From Patescibacteria group bacterium (GTDB lineage: Bacteria; Patescibacteriota; Minisyncoccia; Phycocordibacterales; BOKC01): a DNA stretch of 64,000 nucleotides. How positions within the stretch are numbered: the first letter of the stretch is position 1; each line of letters starts with the position of its first letter. Shown here piece after piece: positions 7,638-62,630 of this stretch. Position numbers and translations under genes: made by a program. Where the stretch lies: NCBI GenBank assembly GCA_038062955.1, contig JBBTWE010000001.1, forward strand, positions 554,271-618,270, given 5' to 3'. The notes below the pieces were generated by a model that was not told where the DNA came from, made no database searches, and was given only the letters and a program-made list of their open reading frames with translations.

Positions 7638-7753
7638 TGAGACGAGCTTTAAGTGGCTTATATTAAGGTCGAAAATTTCTCATAACTTCGTTATTCGAAA
7701 TCTTTCGACATGATTTTTAAAGTGTAAAAATCAGCCTTTTAAAGCTCGTCTCA
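7638..7753. repeat. Perfect 14-bp inverted repeat (GAGACGAGCTTTAA / TTAAAGCTCGTCTC) enclosing an 88-bp spacer
   Basis: Direct reading. Spacer contains a CGACATGATTTTTAAAGTGTAAAAATCAG palindromic module related to repeats at 19988 and 39700. Abuts the GC-rich island. Confidence 0.7.
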
Positions 7754-19980: not shown

Positions 19981-20012
19981 TTTATTCCGACATGATTTCT
20001 GTGGTGCAGAAA
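19981..20012. repeat. Palindromic module CCGACATGATTTCTGTGGTGCAGAAATCAG
   Basis: Same module at 39690-39720 and a variant at 7698-7728. Confidence 0.6.
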
Positions 20013-20360
20013 TCAGAACTCAAGTCCTCCGGCTCGTAGTGCTTCAGCCAAAGCTTTAACTTTACCAGTATATATAAATCCACCACGATCAAAAACAACT
20101 TTTTTGATACCTTTTTTAATCGCATCGCTCGCCAAAGTCTTTCCCATTAACTGCACTTTTTCCATCACAGAAGATCCTTTAAGTTCTTTGGTTGTACCAG
20201 CAGCTAAAGTTTTACCAACTTCATCATTGATGACTTGGGCTGACAAATATTTATTAGACCTGAAAACAGCCACGCGTGGACGTTCATTTGTACCAGAGAT
20301 TTTAGCTCTAATTTTTTTCTGGCTTCTTTTTCGAGGTGATGTATGTATTAATTTTGCCAT
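20013..20360 (-). CDS. rplR: 50S ribosomal protein L18
   Basis: Sequence and order. Confidence 0.9.
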   Translation of the reverse strand: MAKLIHTSPRKRSQKKIRAKISGTNERPRVAVFRSNKYLSAQVINDEVGKTLAAGTTKELKGSSVMEKVQLMGKTLASDAIKKGIKKVVFDRGGFIYTGKVKALAEALRAGGLEF

Positions 20361-31108: not shown

Positions 31109-31261
31109 AACTTTCACATTTGGCCAATTACTTTGCTAAAATCTGCGCTTCGATGCTGATTTCTACATCATAGAAATCATGTCGGAAGATTTTTTATCAC
31201 GAAGTGATATAAAATTTCTGACTCAGTTTTATCAAAGAACTTGTCTCAAATCTGGAAGTTC
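31109..31261. mobile_element. MITE-like element immediately upstream of tuf
   Basis: TIR AACTTTCACATTTGGCC / CAAATCTGGAAGTTC. Contains the GAAATCATGTCGGAAGATTTTTTATCACGAAGTGATATAAAATTTC module shared with 50371 and 62280. Confidence 0.55.
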
Positions 31262-31394
31262 TAAGTTATTAGTAAATAATTATTAAAATTTTATCAAAAT
31301 TTAAATCAAATTGATTATTTTTGCTTACATACAAAAACAAAAATAGCGCAAAAGCGTTATCTGACATATTAACAAACATAATAAAAGAGTCAAC

Positions 31395-36384: not shown

Positions 36385-36615
36385 TATTTGCTCGCCATTA
36401 TCAATTTAATTTATAAACAATATATTAAAACTATATAAATTATATTATTCTTAATTATCTTTCTCGCAAATAAATAAGAGCTATGCCATTTTCTACTACG
36501 GGATCCATACTAAAAGTGTAAATATTCTCCTATTTGATTTTTAACCAGCTTATGATAACATGCCAGAACATATTTTAAGTCCTTATAACCTACAAACTTA
36601 TAACTTTTAAACAAT

Positions 36616-36855
36616 ATGAGAGTCTGTCCAATAACAAATAAAAAAACAATTGTCGGCGGGGGTTACAGTAACAGAACTCGTGCTACCCAGTTTAATCCAA
36701 CTGGTAAAAGAACCAAAAAACCTAATATCCAAAGAAAAAGGATCTATATTCCTGAACTCAAAAAAACTATTTCTATAAATATTTCAACTAAAGGCCTCCG
36801 AACTATCAATAAGAACGGGGCCTACATCACCCTCAAAAAAGCCGGCATCATATAG
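36616..36855 (+). CDS. rpmB: 50S ribosomal protein L28
   Basis: MRVCPITNKKTIVGG... Confidence 0.85.
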   Translation: MRVCPITNKKTIVGGGYSNRTRATQFNPTGKRTKKPNIQRKRIYIPELKKTISINISTKGLRTINKNGAYITLKKAGII

Positions 36856-36976
36856 AACTTGTAATTTTGACGCAACTTCGTCGTTACTTCGCTCCGGTGC
36901 TCCCTCGTCCTATTTATTAATAGGCCTCAGTTCGCTCCTCACTCGCGCCTAGAATTGCATCCAAAATTACAAGTTC
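36855..36976. mobile_element. MITE-like element with perfect 15-bp TIR (GAACTTGTAATTTTG / CAAAATTACAAGTTC)
   Basis: Abuts rpmB stop. Internal sequence is the reverse complement of the 29361 copy's core. Confidence 0.6.
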
Positions 36977-37015
36977 TAAGGAAAAAGAAGGCCTCTGCAG
37001 TAAAGCGAGGTTTTT

Positions 37016-37885
37016 TTATTTATTAGAAAAAGAACGAACGTCTAAATTTTTTCCATCAGACTCAATCAAAATCGTTCCTAAATCATAAGTTCCTAAAATT
37101 TCTATATTATGAGAGTTTAAAATATCAATCACTTCCTTATGGGGATGGCCGTAACTATTATCTTTTCCTGCTTGAATTACTGCGTATCTCGGATTTACCG
37201 TCTCAATAAATGAAGTTGCACTTGAAGTTCTCGAGCCATGATGACCGATCTTTAAAACATCGCTTTCTAAATTTTCACCATCTAAATACACTAAATATTC
37301 TTCAATTGATTGAGGAGAATCTCCGGTAAGTAGGAAGCTCTTTTCTCCATACACCAATTTACCAACAATTGAGGCAACATTTGTTTCGACATCCAACACA
37401 TCTCTATCTGGAAAAAGAATAATAAACTTTGCCCCTCCCCCCAAATCAACAGTCACTCCCCTCCGCGCAACAATTCTTTTAGTGTCTTTTTTTGATAGGG
37501 CAACTTCAAAATTTCCAAGAACCGCGGTTTCAGCGTTAACATTTGGATCTATTTCAAAATCAACATCGTAATTTTTCAAAACCTCGACCAGCCCGCCTAT
37601 ATGATCTTTGTCTGGGTGTGTCGACACAACTACATCAATTTTTCTATCATGAAAAGGAAGAACTTTTGATAATTCTTGAAGAACAGTTTTTCCTGGACCC
37701 CCATCAACGATCATTTTATTGCCAGATGGAGATTTAATAAAAATCGAATCTCCTTGCCCTATATCTAGAAAATAAACTAAAAGTTTGTCGTTTTGCTCCC
37801 AAGCGACCACATACCAAACAAAAACATTCACTAAAATCAAAAGGCTGACAAGATATTCTTTGGAATGTCTAGCTAGTTTTTGCAT
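37016..37885 (-). CDS. ComEC/Rec2-type metallo-beta-lactamase domain protein (stand-alone)
   Basis: N-terminal TM anchor then MBL motifs (HPDKDHIGG, GHHGS). Matches the C-terminal domain of ComEC. Confidence 0.7.
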   Translation of the reverse strand: MQKLARHSKEYLVSLLILVNVFVWYVVAWEQNDKLLVYFLDIGQGDSIFIKSPSGNKMIVDGGPGKTVLQELSKVLPFHDRKIDVVVSTHPDKDHIGGLVEVLKNYDVDFEIDPNVNAETAVLGNFEVALSKKDTKRIVARRGVTVDLGGGAKFIILFPDRDVLDVETNVASIVGKLVYGEKSFLLTGDSPQSIEEYLVYLDGENLESDVLKIGHHGSRTSSATSFIETVNPRYAVIQAGKDNSYGHPHKEVIDILNSHNIEILGTYDLGTILIESDGKNLDVRSFSNK

Positions 37886-38048
37886 TGTAATGATTATATT
37901 TCAATAAAGAAAATAGATATAATATATTTAAATTAAGTCAAAACTCAAAAGGCAAAAATCAAAATTTAAAGTAAAAAGTGTTAAATTTAATAATATTAGA
38001 TTCTTTTTTGACTTTTGGATTTTTAATTGCAATTTTGACCTTTGAATT

Positions 38049-39563
38049 TTGCCTTTTAACTTTACTTTTATGAAACGTCCCTCTAATTGGGTCCTAGGCT
38101 TCATCTCCGCATTTATTATCGGAGTATTCATTCAATCTTTCCTAAATTTCACAGGTCTTTATCTTTTTTTTCTCGAACTAGCCTTAATATTTGGGGGAAT
38201 TTCACTTCTCCATTTCTTTCAAAAAAATAGAATCTCTCTCACTTTTGGTTTTTTAACACTAATACTTATCGCTTCCTCTTTAGGGATTCTTAGAACAGAA
38301 AAAGTTCTATTACCAAAAGATAATCTAGAAAAATCTCGTGATACTGGAGAAATTATAACCTTTATCGGAACTATCGTAGAAGAACCTGACATAAGAGACA
38401 CCAACATAAAATACACCGTTTTAGTTGAAGAAATTGATGAGAGAATCTTAATTACTGCTAAAATTTTTCCAGAGTTAGAGTACAAAGATAGAATAAAGTT
38501 GTCTGGAAAATTAGAAACACCGAAAGAATTCCCAGAATTTAACTATCGAGAATTCTTAATTAAAGACAAAATACACACCGTTTTATACGATCCAGAAATT
38601 GAGTTAATCGAAAAAAAGAATTTTTCTTTTTATCAAAAAATTCTAGACATTAAAAATATTTTAAGACGCTCCACAGAAAAAATTCTGCCTTATCCATACA
38701 GTGAAATTTTAAAAGCGATGATGCTCGGCGATACCAGTTCTCTTCCTCAAGATGTAAAAGATATTTATAAAAATGTTGGTTTAAGCCATATTCTGGCAAT
38801 TTCCGGAAGTCACATCACTATAATTGCCGGAATTTTATTTTCTCTCTTAAACCTTACTAGATTTAGAAAAAAATCTTTTTACATAATTTTGAGCGTGCTC
38901 ATTTTCTATATCGTACTAATCGGGTATCCTGCTTCCGCGGTAAGAGCTGGTATTATGGCCGGAATTTTACTCTTGGGTGAAAAATTAAAACGGCCTTACT
39001 TTATAGAAAGAGGTCTTTTGGTCGCAGCCTTTTTAATGCTTATAATAAATCCTTTGTTCTTACGATACGACATTGGATTTCAGTTATCTTTTCTCGCAGT
39101 TCTAGGCATATCGCAAACCCAAAATATTTTTAAAGATTTTTTCAATAAATTTTTCCGAGGAAAATTACTGTGGTTTCAGGATGTTTTGGCGATCACTTTG
39201 GCTGCTCAAATCTACACTTTACCACTTGTTATATATAACTTTGGTTTCTTTTCTTTATTCTCTCCTCTGGTCAACATTCTAGTTGTTCCAACCTTGCCGA
39301 TGCTCACAATTTTGAGTTTTATCGCGATCTTTGCCGGCGTAATCTGGAGTTTCTTGGGAATTCTCCTTGCTCTGCCTGTTTATCTAATTCTGGTTTACAT
39401 ACAAAAAATAAGTATCTTTTTCGGAAGCATTCATTTAAATTCAATAACAATAGAATCTTTGAGCTTCTTTTGGGTGATTATTCTTTACCTCGTTATTGGA
39501 CTAACAGTCTGGCGTCTCAAAAAGCGGAATAAACGTGCATTACAAAACTCGTCTAATCAATAG
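38049..39563 (+). CDS. comEC: ComEC/Rec2 competence channel domain protein (DUF4131 plus competence domain, no MBL domain)
   Basis: 504 aa polytopic. Competence-domain motifs (LGDTSSLP..., LSHILAISGSHITI). Confidence 0.75.
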   Translation: MPFNFTFMKRPSNWVLGFISAFIIGVFIQSFLNFTGLYLFFLELALIFGGISLLHFFQKNRISLTFGFLTLILIASSLGILRTEKVLLPKDNLEKSRDTGEIITFIGTIVEEPDIRDTNIKYTVLVEEIDERILITAKIFPELEYKDRIKLSGKLETPKEFPEFNYREFLIKDKIHTVLYDPEIELIEKKNFSFYQKILDIKNILRRSTEKILPYPYSEILKAMMLGDTSSLPQDVKDIYKNVGLSHILAISGSHITIIAGILFSLLNLTRFRKKSFYIILSVLIFYIVLIGYPASAVRAGIMAGILLLGEKLKRPYFIERGLLVAAFLMLIINPLFLRYDIGFQLSFLAVLGISQTQNIFKDFFNKFFRGKLLWFQDVLAITLAAQIYTLPLVIYNFGFFSLFSPLVNILVVPTLPMLTILSFIAIFAGVIWSFLGILLALPVYLILVYIQKISIFFGSIHLNSITIESLSFFWVIILYLVIGLTVWRLKKRNKRALQNSSNQ

Positions 39564-39589
39564 TTTTTGAGAGACATTGCGGAGGCGAG

Positions 39590-39720
39590 TCAGAAATTTT
39601 ATATCACGAAGTGATATAAAATCTTCCGACATGATTTCTGTAGTGCAAATCGCGTCGTAAATTTTACACAACTACGTTGTGAAAAATCTTCCGACGTGAT
39701 TTCTGTAGTGCAGAAATCAC
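39590..39720. repeat. Two inverted-orientation copies of the ATCACGAAGTGATATAAAAT / CCGACATGATTTCTGTAGTGCA modules
   Basis: Shared with MITE internal modules (31161, 50455, 62366) and with 19981. Confidence 0.6.
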
Positions 39721-40460
39721 CACCCCTTAAGAACTTCTCTTTCTTCCTCCTGATTCGCAACTTTTTTAAACTTAGCCCCTTTAACCCCCAAAACTATTCT
39801 TTTGCATTCATCCCAAGTCTTATGAGTCATTATTTTTCCATCAACCTTACTTAGATAATATCCAATTTTCGGGGCACGAGATTTTGATTTCTTTTTTAAC
39901 GCAGTTTTAATCTTAATATCGAAAATATCTTTAATTTTATAATCTTTAAAATCGCCAGAAAAAAGTTCGGGAATTTTACCTTCTGCAAAACCCCCAGCAA
40001 TTTCATCTACTCTTTCATTACCCGGAATTCCACTATGACCGGCGACATGTATCCATTCCACGGGTCGGATTTTGGTTTGCTCTAAAAGCTCCTCCCACAA
40101 ATCTTTATTTAAAACCGGCTCTTTATTCATCGTAACCCAATTGCGCCTCTCCCATGAGAAGACCCATTTGGTAATGCCGTTTATAACATAACTTGAATCA
40201 GTGTGGACTTTGATAGAATGCCGCGTCGCCAAATTAGACGCATGCAATAATTCTAAACCTTTTATCGCAGCCATAAGTTCCATTCGGTTATTGGTAGTAT
40301 GCTTCTCTCTCCCACCCACTTCTTTCACTGTGTAATCATTTTCTTTTGGAATCAAAACAACTGCCCCATAACCTCCTGGCCCAGGATTACCTAATGACGC
40401 ACCATCAGCAAAAATAACAATACTATCTGAACTATTTTGAATATTTTTTTTCTTAATCAT
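39717..40460 (-). CDS. rnhA: Ribonuclease HI with C-terminal hybrid-binding-domain-like extension
   Basis: RNase H catalytic residues (FADGASLGNPG..., TNNRMEL, HTDS, HSG..NE.VD). C-terminal YYLSKVDGKIMTHKTWDECKRIVLGVKGAKFKKV resembles the HBD/caulimovirus-viroplasmin motif normally N-terminal in RNase H1. Track start 40535 lies in a repeat, so trimmed to ATG 40460. Confidence 0.75.
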   Translation of the reverse strand: MIKKKNIQNSSDSIVIFADGASLGNPGPGGYGAVVLIPKENDYTVKEVGGREKHTTNNRMELMAAIKGLELLHASNLATRHSIKVHTDSSYVINGITKWVFSWERRNWVTMNKEPVLNKDLWEELLEQTKIRPVEWIHVAGHSGIPGNERVDEIAGGFAEGKIPELFSGDFKDYKIKDIFDIKIKTALKKKSKSRAPKIGYYLSKVDGKIMTHKTWDECKRIVLGVKGAKFKKVANQEEEREVLKGW

Positions 40461-40474
40461 AAATTTCTTTGAAT

Positions 40475-40595
40475 TACAAAACTCGTCGAAATCATAGTTT
40501 TTGAGAGACATTGCGCAGGCTGGCGAGCCGAGCATAGCAAAAATCTAGCAAGATTTTATGCGCGTCTATCAAAAACTTATGATGAGAAAGGGTTT
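40475..40595. repeat. Dispersed repeat family D
   Basis: Near-identical to 62478-62630 except that the latter carries a 32-bp insert also present at 5540-5570. Partial copy at 39555-39583. Confidence 0.7.
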
Positions 40596-48550: not shown

Positions 48551-50341
48551 TTATAAAGGGGAAAGCAATACCTCTTGTTGTTGCCAATTATTAGAAACAG
48601 AAACCTGTGTGGAGGATGTCGCATAATCTTCGTGTGAAATCGTAAGATCATAAGTGCCAGAACCAAGACCGTTAAAAAGAACTTGTCCTGGAGGAATACA
48701 GCTTGAAGTGAAGGTGAATGAAATATTTGAAACATTTGGAGAAATGCTCGTGTCGGCGGTAGAAAGATATAATTTATATCTCAAGAATTGATTGCTATTA
48801 TGAACTGAACTGATATTAGTATTTGATGTCGTGTAAAATGTGCTGGCTGTGCCGTCCGGACCCAAGAAATTCCACGTTTCTGTATCGTTATTGGTGGCAA
48901 TTTGATACTTAACACTGTCTACTCCGCTTAAAATTGGCTGATCTCCAGGTTGCCACAACAATTGCTGAAAATTATTTGGCGCCCCAGTATCAAAAGTAGA
49001 AGAAGTTAAAGTGCCAGATCCATCGTAAGTCCCAAGAAAATTAGTGAGCTTGAGTTCCCCGCTTGGATTGTCAATATCAACATTGGAAGAAGAAAAATAC
49101 ATGCTTGGGTCGCTTGACGTTGCTTGCCCAGAACCACCGTCCCAGTTAGTTTGTGAGATAAACCCAAGCCCTGTCATAAGAGTTTCATCGTAACCGGTTT
49201 TTTCTAGTCTGACAGTTGCATTAGCAAGAGGTAATCCTGTAGCCAAATCTTTAACAACCGCTAGAAGATTGCGTGGATTTGTTGGAGCAACAACCAACAT
49301 GACTTCTTGTAAAGCGTTCGGCACCAAAGATACTGGGAAAATAGGGTTTGTGCCAGCTAAATCATAAGACGTGTCTGTGAGCAAAAGAGAGTAGGTGTCC
49401 CATTCAAGACCAGATACTGTTTTGGTCCCTGCCCCGCCCGTAATATAATTTTGATCAAATTTAAAAACATCTGGATTGGTACCAATGAGCCGATCGCCCT
49501 TGAGAGAAAAATCTACCGATGACACAGGTGAGCAGGTCTGCGTAACTGTAGAGATATTCATTGTGCTCTCTTCATCAATTATAAAACTTATTTGGGTGAC
49601 TTGTTGTAATGCGACCGTTGCATGCGGTTTAATCGGATTTGGGTTCCCCACTGCCCCGGGCGTGTATGTTTGATCTGAAGTGTATCCACTCTTTGTAATT
49701 GTAATTTCATAGGCTGTATCCCCAGGTGGGACATCCACAATCTGAAGCATCCCTGAAATATTTGTGCTGTCATCGATTATCACAGCAGGGTTAATTTGAT
49801 TGTTTTCAATATGCACAGAAGCATCTTCCACAGGTTGACCATTCGCATTAAAAACTCGCACAAAAAGCGCGCCATTACTTGAAGTAGTTTCAAGATTCTT
49901 TGGGGCTACTTTAGTATTAACAAAAATAGAATTAAAACTGCCACAGAGAGAACATCCGATCTCAAGTTCTACCAGTTTATAATCTGCTGGTGACAAATCA
50001 TTTGGACTACCTCCAAGAGTGCCGTCGTAAGAATCATCAATGTTTCTGATCGTAGCTGTTACGCTAAAAGTAACATTGCTTCTCGTTAGAGTCTGGACAT
50101 GGGGAATCTTTCCGCTGGGTATACCACTCACAACTCCAACATCGACATACGGCAAATTGCGAATAATTTCAAATTGCTCGTTGGCCAAAGCCATGGCAAT
50201 AACCCTATTTCTCGAAACATTTATAACTTTTATGATCTCGGAAAAAGCTTGGAAAGCGCTTATCGCAACAACAGAAAAAAGAGCTACGCTAACGACTAGC
50301 TCCACGAGAGTCAGACCTGATTTATTGCGTAACTTTTTCAT
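48551..50341 (-). CDS. Large type IV pilin-like protein (596 aa)
   Basis: KSG|LTLVELVVSVALFSVV prepilin motif. Confidence 0.7.
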   Translation of the reverse strand: MKKLRNKSGLTLVELVVSVALFSVVAISAFQAFSEIIKVINVSRNRVIAMALANEQFEIIRNLPYVDVGVVSGIPSGKIPHVQTLTRSNVTFSVTATIRNIDDSYDGTLGGSPNDLSPADYKLVELEIGCSLCGSFNSIFVNTKVAPKNLETTSSNGALFVRVFNANGQPVEDASVHIENNQINPAVIIDDSTNISGMLQIVDVPPGDTAYEITITKSGYTSDQTYTPGAVGNPNPIKPHATVALQQVTQISFIIDEESTMNISTVTQTCSPVSSVDFSLKGDRLIGTNPDVFKFDQNYITGGAGTKTVSGLEWDTYSLLLTDTSYDLAGTNPIFPVSLVPNALQEVMLVVAPTNPRNLLAVVKDLATGLPLANATVRLEKTGYDETLMTGLGFISQTNWDGGSGQATSSDPSMYFSSSNVDIDNPSGELKLTNFLGTYDGSGTLTSSTFDTGAPNNFQQLLWQPGDQPILSGVDSVKYQIATNNDTETWNFLGPDGTASTFYTTSNTNISSVHNSNQFLRYKLYLSTADTSISPNVSNISFTFTSSCIPPGQVLFNGLGSGTYDLTISHEDYATSSTQVSVSNNWQQQEVLLSPL

Positions 50342-50370
50342 TTAAAATATTTTAACTCAACCAAATTTTA

Positions 50371-50549
50371 GAACTCTCAAATTCGGTGCATACCTTTGTT
50401 ACTTCGCTCCGAGAGCCTCCCTCAACGTATTATTAAATACGTCTCGTTATGGTTCACCATAGAAATCATGTCGGAAGATTTTTTATCACGAAGTGATATA
50501 AAATTTCCGACTCGCTCGTACCTCGGTCTGCATCCGAATTTGAGAGTTC
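50371..50549. mobile_element. MITE-like element between pilin gene and pilC
   Basis: TIR GAACTCTCAAATTCGGTGCA / TGCATCCGAATTTGAGAGTTC (20 bp, one mismatch). Modules: CGCTCCGAGAGCCTCCCTCAACGTATTATTAAATACGTCTCG, and GAAATCATGTCGGAAGATTTTTTATCACGAAGTGATATAAAATTTCCGACTC. Confidence 0.65.
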
Positions 50550-50552
50550 TAA

Positions 50553-51776
50553 CTAGATAGCGTCGGCGAGGGAGTAAATCGGCCCCAACATGGAAACTGC
50601 AAAAATCCCAACAAAAAGACCGATGCAGACCATCAAGAGAGGTTCTATGATCGTTGAGAAATTTTTAGTTTTCTGGTTAACTTCATCCTCATAAAAATCA
50701 GCGACATTTGAAAGCATGACAGACAATTTTCCTGTTTCTTCACCAATACTTGCCATTTCTCCAACAAACGGCGGGTAGAGATTTTGAACATCCGGTCTTA
50801 GAAAAATAGCTGAAATAACATCCCCTTTTTGAACGCCTTCTTCGGCTTGTTTCAGGACCTTTCTATAAAATGGATTTTGGACTACATCTCGAGTAATTCT
50901 TATCGCAACAAGAAAATCAACTCCAGAAGAAAGAAGGGAGGATAAGGTTCTCGCAGTTTTAGCTGAATTGCTTTCTTTAATAAGGGTCGAGGCAATCGGC
51001 ATTTTAAGTGCTATGAAGCTAAAGAATTTTTTTCCACCTTTGGTTTTTAAAACGAAAGAAAAAGCGGTAATAAAAAGTAAAATTGCTCCAGCCACTACAA
51101 TGTAGTGATTTTTTAGAAAATCGCTTAATTTTATAATTATTCTGGTAGAAAGAGGTAGCTCAACATTTAAATCTTTGAAAGTGGCAGTCAAGGAAGGCAC
51201 CAAAAAAATTAAAAGTAAAACACCAATTATAACCATAACTGTTATGACTATGGCGGGATAGATCATCGCTCCCCGAAGTCTTTTCATCAACATATAGATT
51301 TTTTCCATCTGATCAGAAATAGATTTGAGAGACTTTGCTATTGTACCGCTTTCCTCTCCAGCTTTAACCATAGAGACAAATATTGGAGGAAAAACCTTCG
51401 GGAAACCGGCGAAGCTTTGGCTTAAAGAGTCACCTTTATTAATATTATTTTGCATCGTAACAAAAATATCCTTCAATTTTGGGTTCTTAGTTTGTCTCTC
51501 TAACACTGAAAGAGAGCGAATGAGTGGAAGCCCTGATTCAAGCATTGAACCTAAATTTCTAGCAAAGCTGATTTTGTCATTAGTGCTTATGCGATGAAAA
51601 AAACCTTCCAATTTAAGCTTTAACTTATTATTAGAATTTGATTTTTCTTCTGTAACAGAAATAACTGTATCACCGCTAATCCGAAGATCATGAAAAATGG
51701 AGTTTTTATCCGAAGCCTCTCGAACTTCTTCGTATCGTCCGCCATTGTTTTTTATTGCTATGATTTTAAATTTCAT
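50553..51776 (-). CDS. pilC: Type IV pilus assembly platform protein PilC (GspF family)
   Basis: Two GspF repeats, 3 TM. Confidence 0.85.
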   Translation of the reverse strand: MKFKIIAIKNNGGRYEEVREASDKNSIFHDLRISGDTVISVTEEKSNSNNKLKLKLEGFFHRISTNDKISFARNLGSMLESGLPLIRSLSVLERQTKNPKLKDIFVTMQNNINKGDSLSQSFAGFPKVFPPIFVSMVKAGEESGTIAKSLKSISDQMEKIYMLMKRLRGAMIYPAIVITVMVIIGVLLLIFLVPSLTATFKDLNVELPLSTRIIIKLSDFLKNHYIVVAGAILLFITAFSFVLKTKGGKKFFSFIALKMPIASTLIKESNSAKTARTLSSLLSSGVDFLVAIRITRDVVQNPFYRKVLKQAEEGVQKGDVISAIFLRPDVQNLYPPFVGEMASIGEETGKLSVMLSNVADFYEDEVNQKTKNFSTIIEPLLMVCIGLFVGIFAVSMLGPIYSLADAI

Positions 51777-51798
51777 GTTTGTTGCTTAAATTTTTGTA

Positions 51799-51874
51799 GA
51801 ACTTTCAGATTCCTGCCTGCCGGCAGGCAGGTGAGACAAGTTTTAGTAAAAAAATTGGCCGAATCTGGAAGTTC
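51799..51874. mobile_element. Short MITE-like element between pilC and pilB
   Basis: TIR GAACTTTCAGATTC / GAATCTGGAAGTTC enclosing the CCTGCCTGCCGGCAGGCAGG palindrome. Confidence 0.55.
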
Positions 51875-51875
51875 T

Positions 51876-53624
51876 TTACTCTGATACTACTCTAAGTATC
51901 TCCTCAAGCGTCGTAAGCCCCTGAACCGCTTTAAAAACACCGTCTTCAATCATTGTAATCATACCTTCTTCTTTGGCTTGTTTCTCAATAATTTTATCAG
52001 CTTTTTCTTGAAGAATCAGTTCTTTTATCGCGGGTGATACTTTCAAAATTTCATAAATTCCCATTCTACCGGAGTAACCATCTTCAGAATCTTCAGTTAT
52101 TTTGGGTTTGTAAAAAGGGATTTTGTCCCACTCTGCACCAGGAGGAACTATTGATTCCATCTTTAAAAACTTGAGAACTCTTTTTAGATCCACCGCTTTG
52201 CTTAAAGTATCAAGTTCTTCTTTTTTGAGAAAATATTTTTCTTTTTTTTCAGTAAGTTTTCTCACCAACCTCTGCCCAATGATAACATTCACGGTAGAAA
52301 CTATTAAGAATGGCTCCGCTTTCATATCAATAAGTCTTGGGATAGCGCCAGCCGCTGAATTGGTGTGGAGGGTCGATAAAACCAAGTGCCCAGTGAGAGA
52401 CGCATTTATGGCAAGAGAAGCGGTTTCATTGTCTCTAATTTCTCCCACCATAATAATATCGGGGTCTTGTCGGACCAGAGCTCTTAGTCCGTTTGAAAAT
52501 GTGAGTCCAATTTCAGGCTTAACTTGAGTTTGGTTGACTCGGTTTATCTGATATTCAACTGGGTCCTCAATCGTGGAAATATTCACTCTCGGCACATTCA
52601 GAATCTCAAGAACCGTGTAAAGTGTGGTGGTTTTCCCTGATCCTGTTGGGCCAGTAGTCAAAATCATTCCTGTAGTAGCTCGAGTAGCGCTATGAAGTTT
52701 TTCCAGGCCTTCTCCATGAAAACCGAGAGCTTCTAATGTAAACCCAGAGGCATCTTCCCGTAGTAATCGCATAACCGCTTTTTCACCAAAATATATTGGC
52801 AATGTTGAAACACGAAAAGAAACCTTTTCGCCGTTCATATCTATTTTAAACCTCCCGTCTTGCGGCAATCTTTTCTCATCAAGTTTTAGATTAGACAAAA
52901 CCTTTATGCGAGCAATTATACTTAGAGCGACATTTTTAGGGAGAATCATAGCATCTCGCAGAATTCCATCAATGCGATACCTTACCACGACTTTTTCTTC
53001 TGTTGGTTCAATATGAATATCGGAAGCATTTTGGATAATCGCATGTTTTAGCAAAGTGTCGACTATTCTGACAACAGGCAAATCTTCCGCGAGTTTTTTA
53101 AGATCACTTCCTGAAAGATCTTCCTGCCCTTCTGGAATAGATTTCAAAGAAACTGCTTCTTTTTGAATAATATCTCCGAACTCCGCTCTTAAACTTTTTT
53201 GATACTGCAGTAAAACGCTTTTTATTGATTCAGCATCTGTTAACCTAGGAAGAATCCGAAGCGCAACTTTTTTCCTTACAAAATCAATAGCTGACAAATC
53301 AGTTGAGTCGAGCATAGCGACCTCAAGAAAATCTGGCCCTTTCTTAAAAGCGATAATGTTGTGGTTACGAGCAACTGGCTCCGGAATAAGTGACAATATT
53401 TCAAAATCTATTTTTTGATTCTTTAAATCAACAAAAGGGATACCGAGGATCATTGCTTGAACCCGTCGGAGTTCATTCTGATCAATCTTACCCTTACGAA
53501 GAAGCACTTTCTCTAAGTTTTCATTCTTTTCCAGAGATTCTTTTTCCACTTCCTTAAAATCTTTTAAGGAAATTAAACCTGAATCTATAATGAATTCTTT
53601 GAGTTGTTGATCAGTAACTTGCAT
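51876..53624 (-). CDS. pilB: Type IV pilus assembly ATPase PilB/GspE
   Basis: Walker A GPTGSGKTTTLY, Asp/His boxes, N-terminal GSPII domain. Confidence 0.9.
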   Translation of the reverse strand: MQVTDQQLKEFIIDSGLISLKDFKEVEKESLEKNENLEKVLLRKGKIDQNELRRVQAMILGIPFVDLKNQKIDFEILSLIPEPVARNHNIIAFKKGPDFLEVAMLDSTDLSAIDFVRKKVALRILPRLTDAESIKSVLLQYQKSLRAEFGDIIQKEAVSLKSIPEGQEDLSGSDLKKLAEDLPVVRIVDTLLKHAIIQNASDIHIEPTEEKVVVRYRIDGILRDAMILPKNVALSIIARIKVLSNLKLDEKRLPQDGRFKIDMNGEKVSFRVSTLPIYFGEKAVMRLLREDASGFTLEALGFHGEGLEKLHSATRATTGMILTTGPTGSGKTTTLYTVLEILNVPRVNISTIEDPVEYQINRVNQTQVKPEIGLTFSNGLRALVRQDPDIIMVGEIRDNETASLAINASLTGHLVLSTLHTNSAAGAIPRLIDMKAEPFLIVSTVNVIIGQRLVRKLTEKKEKYFLKKEELDTLSKAVDLKRVLKFLKMESIVPPGAEWDKIPFYKPKITEDSEDGYSGRMGIYEILKVSPAIKELILQEKADKIIEKQAKEEGMITMIEDGVFKAVQGLTTLEEILRVVSE

Positions 53625-62280: not shown

Positions 62281-62466
62281 AACTTTCACATTCGGCGTAT
62301 CTCTGCGTTACTTCGCTCCGAGCCTCCCTCAACGTATTATTAAATACGTCTCGGTACGGTTCTGATTTCTACACCATAGAAATCATGTCGGGAGATTTTT
62401 TATCACGAAGTGATATAAAATTTCCGACTCGCTCGCGCCTTGATCTGCATCCGAATCTGAAAGTTC
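62280..62466. mobile_element. MITE-like element overlapping rpsO stop
   Basis: TIR GAACTTTCACATTCGG / CCGAATCTGAAAGTTC. Module content near-identical to the 50371 copy. Confidence 0.65.
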
Positions 62467-62477
62467 TATAAGAAACT

Positions 62478-62630
62478 CATTGAAATCATAGTTTTTGAGA
62501 GACATTGCGCAGGTCGACAGGTTAGGTGTCGACACCTGTAGACGGGCTGGCGAGCCGAGCATAGCAAAAATCTAGCAAGATTTTATGCACGTCTATCAAA
62601 AACTTATGATGAGTAAGAGTTTCGAGATAA
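62478..62630. repeat. Family D repeat with 32-bp insert
   Basis: See 40475-40595. Insert TCGACAGGTTAGGTGTCGACACCTGTAGACGG also at 5540-5570. Confidence 0.7.

Follow-up and report, generated by a model that had tools for sequence, protein, structure and literature searches.

A ComEC DNA-uptake protein probably encoded as two divergent genes in a member of the Patescibacteria

Two divergently oriented genes, separated by an AT-rich spacer, occupy positions 37016 to 39563 of the window, by which we mean the whole 64-kb stretch of DNA that was analysed. The features of this locus, and a second copy of a repeat found in its spacer, are as follows, with the supporting evidence in brackets.

17518..17629, no strand: second palindromic copy, between secY (17633-18904) and adk (16862-17449) (blastn, alignment, Pfam SecY and ADK)
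37016..37885, minus strand: probable ComEC nuclease half, a TM helix plus ComEC-type metallo-beta-lactamase (MBL), 289 aa (Pfam Lactamase_B, TIGR00361, PDB, AF2, Foldseek)
37601..37618, minus strand: metal-binding motif H-P-D-K-D-H, aa 90-95, of the ComEC form HxDxDH (relatives' alignment)
37793..37861, minus strand: N-terminal TM helix of the nuclease half, aa 9-31 (hydropathy, AF2, alignment)
37886..38069, no strand: divergent spacer, 184 bp, 17.9% GC, holding both presumed promoters (ORF ends and composition)
37930..38067, no strand: imperfect palindromic element, copy of a dispersed intergenic repeat (arms 37930-37977 and 38020-38067, 48 nt, 75% complementary)
38070..39563, plus strand: probable ComEC channel half, N-terminal TM helices, OB fold (DUF4131) and Competence domain, 497 aa (Pfam, TIGR00361, PDB, NCBI protein P0121)
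38169..38603, plus strand: DUF4131/OB-fold region (Pfam PF13567, aa 41-185 in 504-aa numbering)
38718..39524, plus strand: Competence (channel) domain (Pfam PF03772, aa 224-492 in 504-aa numbering)

The plus-strand ORF carries a nearly full-length Competence domain (PF03772, E 1.9e-51, profile positions 1-269 of 270), preceded on its N-terminal side by a DUF4131 match above the gathering score (PF13567, E 4.2e-14). In a PDB sequence search, residues 88-448 of its product align to 80-461 of ComEC 30bt, and we equate the protein with TM1-TM10 of the solved ComEC. A first-pass annotation had described it as a plus-strand DUF4131/Competence protein of 504 aa, a reading that starts at TTG 38049. 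The strand and domains hold, but the length does not: the start was placed at ATG 38070 because P0121, an NCBI ComEC/Rec2 protein 100% identical to the channel protein, is 497 aa long and because the closest channel orthologue opens with MKNPSNWVLGF.

The minus-strand ORF does encode a 289-aa MBL protein with its own N-terminal TM anchor, as that annotation had it, with a hydropathy segment at residues 9-31 and an AF2 helix at 8-29. The ORF matches Pfam Lactamase_B (E 3.4e-14), and the best NCBIfam match of its product is to the C-terminal part of the ComEC_Rec2 model TIGR00361 (E 1e-37). Its six PDB sequence matches are ComEC chains without exception, residues 12-283 aligning to 513-793 of the 801-aa ComEC 30bt, and no non-ComEC PDB chain matched the protein at E<=0.001. 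The AF2 model (pLDDT 91) has as its top Foldseek match 9ic4, a ComEC beta-lactamase-like domain (E 8e-26); the next fold match, Pce, is ten orders of magnitude weaker. Across 29 relatives, residues H90, D92, D94 and H95 do not vary, nor do the GQGD, TGD, GHHGS and YGHP motifs, and HxDxDH has also been described for the ComEC MBL domain (PMC12455585).

In an NCBIfam profile search the two products tile TIGR00361, the channel protein covering model positions 29-415 and the MBL protein 413-660. Their scores of 115.5 and 129.7 bits sum to 245, each alone falling below the 190-bit cutoff. Across the ORF pair all of the model's modules are present (Competence, the DUF4131 OB fold and the MBL nuclease); a single above-cutoff polypeptide with every ComEC module is absent, and there are two ORFs on opposite strands instead. 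As PDB sequence matches of either half are ComEC chains only, and the best family and fold matches are likewise ComEC, the locus appears to hold a genuine two-gene ComEC, as first proposed. It is likely that the two ORFs encode complementary halves of one ComEC DNA-uptake machine, separate genes being the norm in Patescibacteria (CPR). Lying on opposite strands, the two genes are necessarily transcribed apart. Neither half has a further copy within the 64-kb window.

Elsewhere in the window, the ORF at 9976-11358 gave a weak, unrelated MBL-fold match, and the type IV pilus genes pilB and pilC, with a pilin-like gene, lie ~10 kb from the ComEC pair. In a cultured Saccharibacterium (a Patescibacterium), deletion of ComEC abolishes natural transformation (PMC10633639). 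The pair described here has a putative role in DNA import for natural transformation.

A comparison with relatives indicates that the split is an ordinary feature of the phylum and not a one-off of this genome. The best 120 database relatives of each half are all single-module proteins, and intact single-module homologues number in the thousands. Among 81 non-redundant related loci, 49 hold a split but linked pair and 12 are fused, the latter comprising 11 labelled Chloroflexi and one labelled only "bacterium"; none of the Patescibacteria-labelled loci in this set is fused. Linkage is kept in 49 of ~54 informative Patescibacteria-type loci, and in 13 loci the halves abut or overlap (-25 to +136 nt). 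The halves are unlinked in at least five loci that have generous flanks, no channel gene being found within ~5-8 kb of the MBL gene (L005, L022, L039, L041 and L082). CPR bacteria have been reported to lack the ComEC fusion (Méheust 2019, PMC6744442), and in other bacteria the MBL domain is found on only about half of Competence-domain proteins (PMC6299819). The split itself is confirmed in relatives and is not peculiar to this locus.

Only the head-to-head orientation is lineage-specific. A divergent pair was found in the window, in L001 and in L002-L004, and the 47 other linked loci are all same-strand; the usual patescibacterial order, with the channel gene upstream of the MBL gene and on the same strand, is not followed here. 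The synteny HIT-RecJ-RNaseH-channel-MBL is kept in L001 and L002. Elsewhere an opposite-strand SOD-like gene often lies between the channel and MBL genes, and in most lineages an intervening gene on the other strand means that the halves are transcribed separately; the window contains no SOD-like gene. The present order probably arose in this lineage when the channel gene was inverted with respect to the conserved sod-like/MBL pair; the sod-like gene would then have been lost, and a dispersed palindromic intergenic repeat would later have inserted into the spacer and lengthened it.

The position of the break bears on how the halves might work together. The MBL protein takes up the ComEC model at the very point where the match of the channel protein stops, and in fused Chloroflexi ComECs the break corresponds to the loop that joins the final two TM helices; alignment for domain boundaries, suggested at the outset, therefore places abutting halves with the cut before the last TM helix. 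The N-terminal anchor of the MBL protein aligns with the pre-MBL TM helix of the fused Chloroflexi proteins, with a Trp common to both. By cryo-EM, ComEC has 11 TM helices, TM10 and TM11 being separated by a short cytoplasmic helix, and its OB and MBL domains are periplasmic (PMC13539106). We equate the anchor with TM11 of fused ComEC and read the break as the TM10-TM11 loop. Basic residues precede the anchor helix, so the positive-inside rule puts its N-terminus inside and predicts a cytoplasmic break loop. A cut in a short cytoplasmic loop would allow each half to insert into the membrane alone with its native topology.

In the working model, the 497-aa protein would supply the N-terminal TM helices, the extracytoplasmic OB fold and the Competence channel, while the 289-aa protein would supply the last TM helix and an extracytoplasmic MBL nuclease with all its metal-binding motifs intact. 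The anchor helix and MBL domain would dock again on the channel/OB half, with incoming duplex DNA held by the OB fold; the MBL would degrade the non-transported strand, and the other strand would pass through the channel. We infer physical association of the two halves; the homology of the anchor to the pre-MBL helix of fused ComEC, with its conserved Trp, suggests that packing against the channel has been kept. Several observations weigh against a single machine, among them the unlinked loci and the separate transcription of the halves in most lineages. When isolated, the ComEC MBL shows little activity and binds DNA weakly unless it shares a chain with the OB fold (PMC12455585), which makes an unlinked nuclease look less efficient; and free secreted ComEC-type MBLs exist in Firmicutes, so the nuclease could act alone.

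These Firmicutes paralogues also bear on an alternative in which the membrane-anchored MBL is a channel-independent surface nuclease that breaks down environmental or host DNA for nucleotide scavenging, its linkage to the channel gene reflecting a shared pathway or history with no complex formed. Such a role is consistent with the separate transcription units here and in most relatives, with the unlinked state of some loci, and with strand degradation in S. pneumoniae by the separate membrane nuclease EndA (PMC12455585). CPR bacteria generally lack the means to make nucleotides, and scavenging has been raised for them in the literature (PMC6744442). Against it stand the ancestry of the anchor helix and its Trp, the linkage in nearly all informative loci with several gene overlaps, and the finding that Saccharibacteria com genes are needed for transformation but dispensable for growth (PMC10633639). 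We consider an independent nuclease unlikely.

The uncoupling of nuclease and channel could be a functional adaptation of CPR, an idea we regard as unlikely. Were it so, a cell with independent promoters could vary its nuclease-to-channel ratio and switch between import of intact ssDNA for transformation and degradation of DNA captured from a host or the environment, to scavenge nucleotides; docking through the TM11-like helix would be reversible, and the sod-like gene frequently found between the halves might join the same module.

The spacer had been described as a 160-bp region with an inverted repeat. With the channel start at ATG 38070 it spans 184 bp, and the shorter figure was dropped. 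The repeat is real, with arms CAAAAGGCAAAA at 37946-37957 and TTTTGCCTTTT at 38047-38057; an exact 11-nt arm is unremarkable alone, since 173 of 2000 shuffles that kept the A-rich and T-rich halves also gave one, though the score of the extended palindrome was reached in just 4 of 2000 composition-aware shuffles. That symmetry, its central position between divergent genes that serve a single pathway, and a -35-like TTGAGT inside the left arm would suit a dedicated operator co-regulating both halves from a bidirectional promoter. We nonetheless judge an operator very improbable. Positions 37949-38062 match 17521-17629 at 74% identity over 115 nt (E 1.5e-16, blastn within the window), and this second copy lies between secY and adk, two genes that run in the same direction. 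Other dispersed intergenic palindromes are abundant in the window, the closest relative (~72% protein identity) has a 48-bp spacer without the element, and promoter-like hexamers in a scan of 36400-40000 were not enriched (7 against 12.6 expected in shuffles). Given the dispersed copy and the absence from the closest relative, the palindrome probably does not serve as a regulatory site specific to ComEC and is better regarded as a generic dispersed intergenic element. An exact-pattern search for it in 84 fetched loci gave no match. As for a role as an RNA hairpin, the spacer fold has a z-score of only -1.9 and neither predicted transcript would hold both arms, and this candidate was rejected.

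The MBL ORF might instead be an unrelated neighbouring hydrolase (a beta-lactamase, glyoxalase II or Pce-like esterase) beside an MBL-less ComEC. ComECs with DUF4131 and Competence domains and no MBL are common, also in transformable species (PMC6299819), and the MBL protein has weak sub-threshold matches to blaAHM (92 bits against a cutoff of 590) and to defence-system MBLs. When set against non-ComEC hydrolases, as the first-pass annotation had advised, ComEC prevailed in the family model, the PDB search and the fold comparison, which contradict this reading; with the invariant ComEC-form motif, the start of the protein at the end of the channel's model match, and a gene pair conserved across the phylum, it is highly improbable. 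That the split is an artefact of mis-assembly or frameshift or the relic of a pseudogenised comEC is scarcely credible: division of comEC by insertion elements or decay is reported elsewhere, for instance in P. salmonis (PMC12955456), but here the two ORFs lie on opposite strands and each has a start and a stop of its own, identical proteins occur on several independent contigs (3 and 6), the numerous single-module homologues keep invariant catalytic residues, and the independent assemblies L002-L004 have the orthologous arrangement.

Compared with canonical ComEC/Rec2 (Neomoorella carbonis 30bt, B. subtilis, TIGR00361), the pair has the same modules, order, catalytic motifs and predicted MBL fold, and the same inferred topology with OB and MBL outside. 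The difference is that canonical ComEC is one polypeptide, whereas here there are two, from opposite strands, with the break read as the TM10-TM11 cytoplasmic loop. The architecture of the channel protein is precisely that of the MBL-less "DC-profile" ComECs (Pimentel & Zhang 2018; Méheust 2019 for CPR). Those surveys scored the Competence-containing protein only, and we found in them no discussion of a separately encoded TM plus MBL partner; here the MBL module is encoded by the adjacent gene, and module and channel gene are conserved together across the phylum. The secreted or lipoprotein ComEC-type MBLs of Firmicutes (L080-L084) have ~42% identity over the MBL domain and HPDxDH, GHHGS and YGHP in common with the MBL protein. 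They carry a signal peptide or lipobox, some with extra N- or C-terminal regions, not a ComEC-like TM helix, and there is no channel gene in the locus. EndA is not known to be an MBL-fold enzyme, whereas the trans nuclease here is the ComEC MBL module, still with its preceding ComEC TM helix. S. pneumoniae ComEC with EndA does offer a precedent for a separate membrane-bound strand-degrading nuclease (PMC12455585).

Our literature search, with most subscription journals outside its reach, found no full-text description of a two-gene ComEC beyond the account of the missing CPR fusion (Méheust 2019). Natural transformation relies universally on ComEC to import DNA across the inner membrane. The present locus is an ordinary member of a phylum pattern, which corrects the impression that CPR ComECs "lack" the nuclease, since surveys based on the Competence domain only would miss a neighbouring partner. 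The ComEC structure was solved only recently, and natural split versions offer ready constructs for tests of MBL/TM docking. A natural split across the phylum would mean that a covalent tether between nuclease and channel is not needed.

Both divergent ORFs that the first-pass annotation read as a split ComEC are present in the window, and their domains were confirmed by Pfam. The channel ORF had been listed from a TTG at 38049 (504 aa); because an identical NCBI protein (P0121, 100% identity) is 497 aa long and the closest orthologue has the N-terminus MKNPSNWVLGF, the start was moved to the ATG at 38070, which widens the spacer from the 160 bp first given.

37016-37885 (-), MBL ORF, 289 aa, Pfam Lactamase_B
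37886-38069, spacer between the MBL and channel genes, 184 bp, 17.9% GC
38070-39563 (+), channel ORF, 497 aa, Pfam DUF4131 and Competence

On the NCBIfam model TIGR00361 (ComEC_Rec2, 663 positions), the match of the channel protein spans positions 29-415 and that of the MBL protein 413-660, thus the halves tile the model end to end; their scores (115.5 and 129.7 bits) each fall below the 190-bit cutoff and exceed it when combined. All PDB sequence matches of the channel protein (five of five) and of the MBL protein (six of six distinct sequences) were ComEC. The best for the MBL protein were the beta-lactamase-like domain 9ic4 (E 2e-34) and 30bt, a full-length ComEC of 801 aa in which residues 513-793 align with MBL residues 12-283 and residues 80-461 with channel residues 88-448. 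The AlphaFold2 model of the MBL protein (pLDDT 91.2, pTM 0.87) places a single long helix (8-29) at the N-terminus, ahead of an MBL fold, and its top Foldseek match was 9ic4 (E 7.8e-26, TM 0.84), with the esterase Pce as runner-up (2.6e-16). Aligning 29 relatives showed no variation in the motifs GQGD, H90-x-D92-x-D94-H95, TGD, GHHGS and YGHP; HxDxDH is the form reported for the ComEC nuclease (PMC12455585). Since family, PDB, fold and motif evidence all favour ComEC over non-ComEC MBL hydrolases, the MBL gene is not simply an unrelated neighbour, and the pair is a genuine two-gene ComEC.

To place the break, the window proteins were concatenated and aligned with fused Chloroflexi ComECs. Their junction lies in the loop that connects the final TM helix of the channel to the lone TM helix ahead of the MBL domain. 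The N-terminal helix of the MBL protein aligns with this pre-MBL helix, with a conserved Trp in common. The channel protein carries ...WRLKKRNKR at its C-terminus and the MBL protein starts MQKLARHSKEY ahead of its hydrophobic stretch at aa 9-31. Under the positive-inside rule, the two ends at the break would face the cytoplasm. N. carbonis ComEC, solved by cryo-EM, has 11 TM helices; a short cytoplasmic helix lies between TM10 and TM11, the OB and MBL domains are periplasmic, and TM11 has no density in one protomer (PMC13539106). Based on the junction alignment, the positive-inside ends and this topology, the channel protein would comprise TM1-TM10 plus the OB fold and the MBL protein TM11 plus the MBL domain, with the break where two separately inserting fragments would retain native topology.

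The MBL half's top 120 database relatives all measure 239-311 aa and have MBL-fold domains only, and those of the channel half are all 387-514 aa (120/120) with DUF4131 and Competence only; several MBL-only relatives carry the NCBI name "ComEC/Rec2 family competence protein". The MBL alignment was used to retrieve 80 loci from GTDB species genomes, and all ORFs were scored with HMMs of both halves; these plus L001 and the closest relative, L002, form 81 non-redundant loci.

Arrangement of the ComEC halves in the surveyed loci
Fused ComEC, stop-to-stop length about 760-970 aa: 12 loci
Channel directly upstream of the MBL gene, same strand (-25 to +136 nt): 13 loci
Channel upstream of the MBL gene, same strand, at greater distance (167 nt to 6.2 kb): 34 loci
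Divergent channel and MBL genes: 2 loci (L001, L002)
No channel gene: 21 loci

Eleven of the 12 fused loci are Chloroflexi-labelled and one is labelled only "bacterium"; no fused ComEC was scored among the Patescibacteria-labelled members of the 81 loci. This matches the fusion of ComEC and MBL in only six CPR genomes in Méheust et al. 2019 (PMC6744442). Neither that work nor Pimentel & Zhang 2018 (PMC6299819) discusses a separately encoded MBL partner, and a further full-text literature search found no description of a two-gene ComEC. Among the loci lacking a channel gene, about ten are truncated by a contig end near the MBL gene, four are secreted paralogues from Firmicutes and five have ample flanks. 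Some Chloroflexi-labelled genomes (L046, L051 and L067, Anaerolineae / Dehalococcoidia-labelled) carry a separate MBL ORF 3' of the channel ORF; the two overlap by 45 nt in L067, and the L046 channel ORF has about 250 additional C-terminal residues without a match to the MBL profile. Recent fission, a frameshift or degeneration of the domain could account for these split ORFs.

Where a gene lies between channel and MBL ("gap" loci), it is usually on the opposite strand. In many Patescibacteria it encodes a ~200-aa SOD-like protein with a DMWEH motif: of 24 gap loci that were examined, 15 have this gene, and five others (the Yonathbacteria-type L013, L014, L016 and L021, and L053) have instead one for a polytopic membrane protein, which we read as DedA-like.

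L001 5350-5940, SOD-like gene between the ComEC halves, Sod_Fe_C match, DMWEH motif
L006, L009-L012, L015, L027, L029, L030, L034, L036, L037, L043, L044, SOD-like gene in the channel-MBL gap, opposite strand

The common layout is channel(+) / sod-like(-) / MBL(+); because an opposite-strand gene separates the halves, these lineages too have a distinct promoter for the MBL gene. L001 reads channel(-) sod-like(-) | MBL(+). The window and L002-L004 (proteins 72% and 71% identical to the window's) have the two genes head to head without the sod-like gene, which is found nowhere in the 64-kb window. The flanking HIT-RecJ-RNase H genes are conserved. Most simply, the channel gene would have inverted in this lineage and the sod-like gene would have been lost afterwards.

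The inverted repeat described for the AT-rich spacer (CAAAAGGCAAAA / TTTTGCCTTTT) is there. The score of the extended palindrome was reached in 4 of 2000 shuffles, with A-rich and T-rich halves shuffled separately, and is above chance; the exact 11-mer arm alone (173 of 2000) is not. Positions 37949-38062 are 74% identical to 17521-17629 over 115 nt (E 1.5e-16). We regard the palindrome as an inserted generic intergenic repeat and not as a ComEC operator, since the copy at 17521-17629 separates secY and adk, two genes that run in the same direction, the closest relative's 48-bp spacer lacks the element and the window holds many further families of dispersed intergenic repeats; promoter-like hexamers in the spacer were also not commoner than in shuffles. 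The 48-bp spacer (L002 5902-5949) serves both divergent genes; next to the MBL start it has a perfect palindrome, TACAATAATTGTA, and about 16 nt 5' of the channel ATG an extended -10-like TGTTATAAT.

37930-37977 and 38020-38067, extended palindrome arms, 75% complementary
39536-39586, 40470-40520 and 62464-62514, 51-nt dispersed repeat, 75-88% identity among copies
39586-39647 and 39651-39712, tandem repeat copies where the channel and RNase H genes converge; further members at 7665-7726 and 19985-20015
31166-31262, 50455-50551 and 62372-62468, dispersed repeat family
40518-40595 and 62545-62622, dispersed repeat pair
23698, 46054 and 51786, dispersed repeat family
39717-40535 (-), RNase H ORF
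9976-11358 (-), second, unrelated MBL-fold ORF, 460 aa, weak ComEC-MBL profile match (E 2e-7)

The window abounds in dispersed intergenic repeats with internal palindromes, which belong to several families, one pair being 96% identical over 78 nt; this is a high load of REP-like elements for a ~0.7 Mb genome. The 3' end of the channel ORF lies within the 51-nt copy at 39536-39586, which gives the ORF its last 8 codons and stop (…ALQNSSNQ*); the L002 orthologue has a different C-terminus (…KKLIPTL*). The listed RNase H start is probably too far upstream, since the L002 orthologue starts at the Met26 equivalent and a dispersed repeat overlaps the additional N-terminal residues. The C-terminus of this ORF (aa 239-264) has a weak, sub-threshold match (E 8e-4) to an 'RNase H1 N-terminal' domain (Cauli_VI). 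The second MBL-fold ORF is, at a guess, an RNase J/beta-CASP-type enzyme.

Both ComEC halves are intact, conserved, complementary and usually linked. In the membrane, they would come together again as a ComEC-like machine: the OB fold would bind DNA, the MBL domain would degrade one strand and the channel would pass the other. Transformation of a cultured Patescibacterium requires ComEC (PMC10633639), and type IV pilus genes (48551-53624) lie about 10-15 kb from the pair.

48551-50341, 596-aa pilin-like protein, N-terminal pilin methylation motif and CarboxypepD_reg domains
50553-51776, pilC-like platform (T2SSF)
51876-53624, pilB-like ATPase (T2SSE and MshEN)

The main rival is that the anchored nuclease works alone, for example in nucleotide scavenging; unlinked loci, separate transcription and the free Firmicutes paralogues speak for it, whereas the TM11-like helix that the MBL protein has kept and the strong linkage of the MBL and channel genes argue for a joint machine. 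The Firmicutes proteins (L080-L084; Bacillus cereus, Lysinibacillus, Heyndrickxia, Paenibacillus) carry a ComEC-type MBL domain (HPDADH, GHHGS, YGHP; ~42% identical to the window protein), are secreted or lipoproteins, some extended N- or C-terminally, and have no channel gene nearby; they are free-standing relatives of the ComEC nuclease.

As far as could be found, the literature holds no explicit description of a two-gene ComEC, a variant of a known system that annotation pipelines recognise and the literature implies. The head-to-head pair of the first-pass annotation is real, but the split is not peculiar to this locus: the window's two-gene ComEC is typical of the phylum, and only its head-to-head orientation and inserted repeat are local details.
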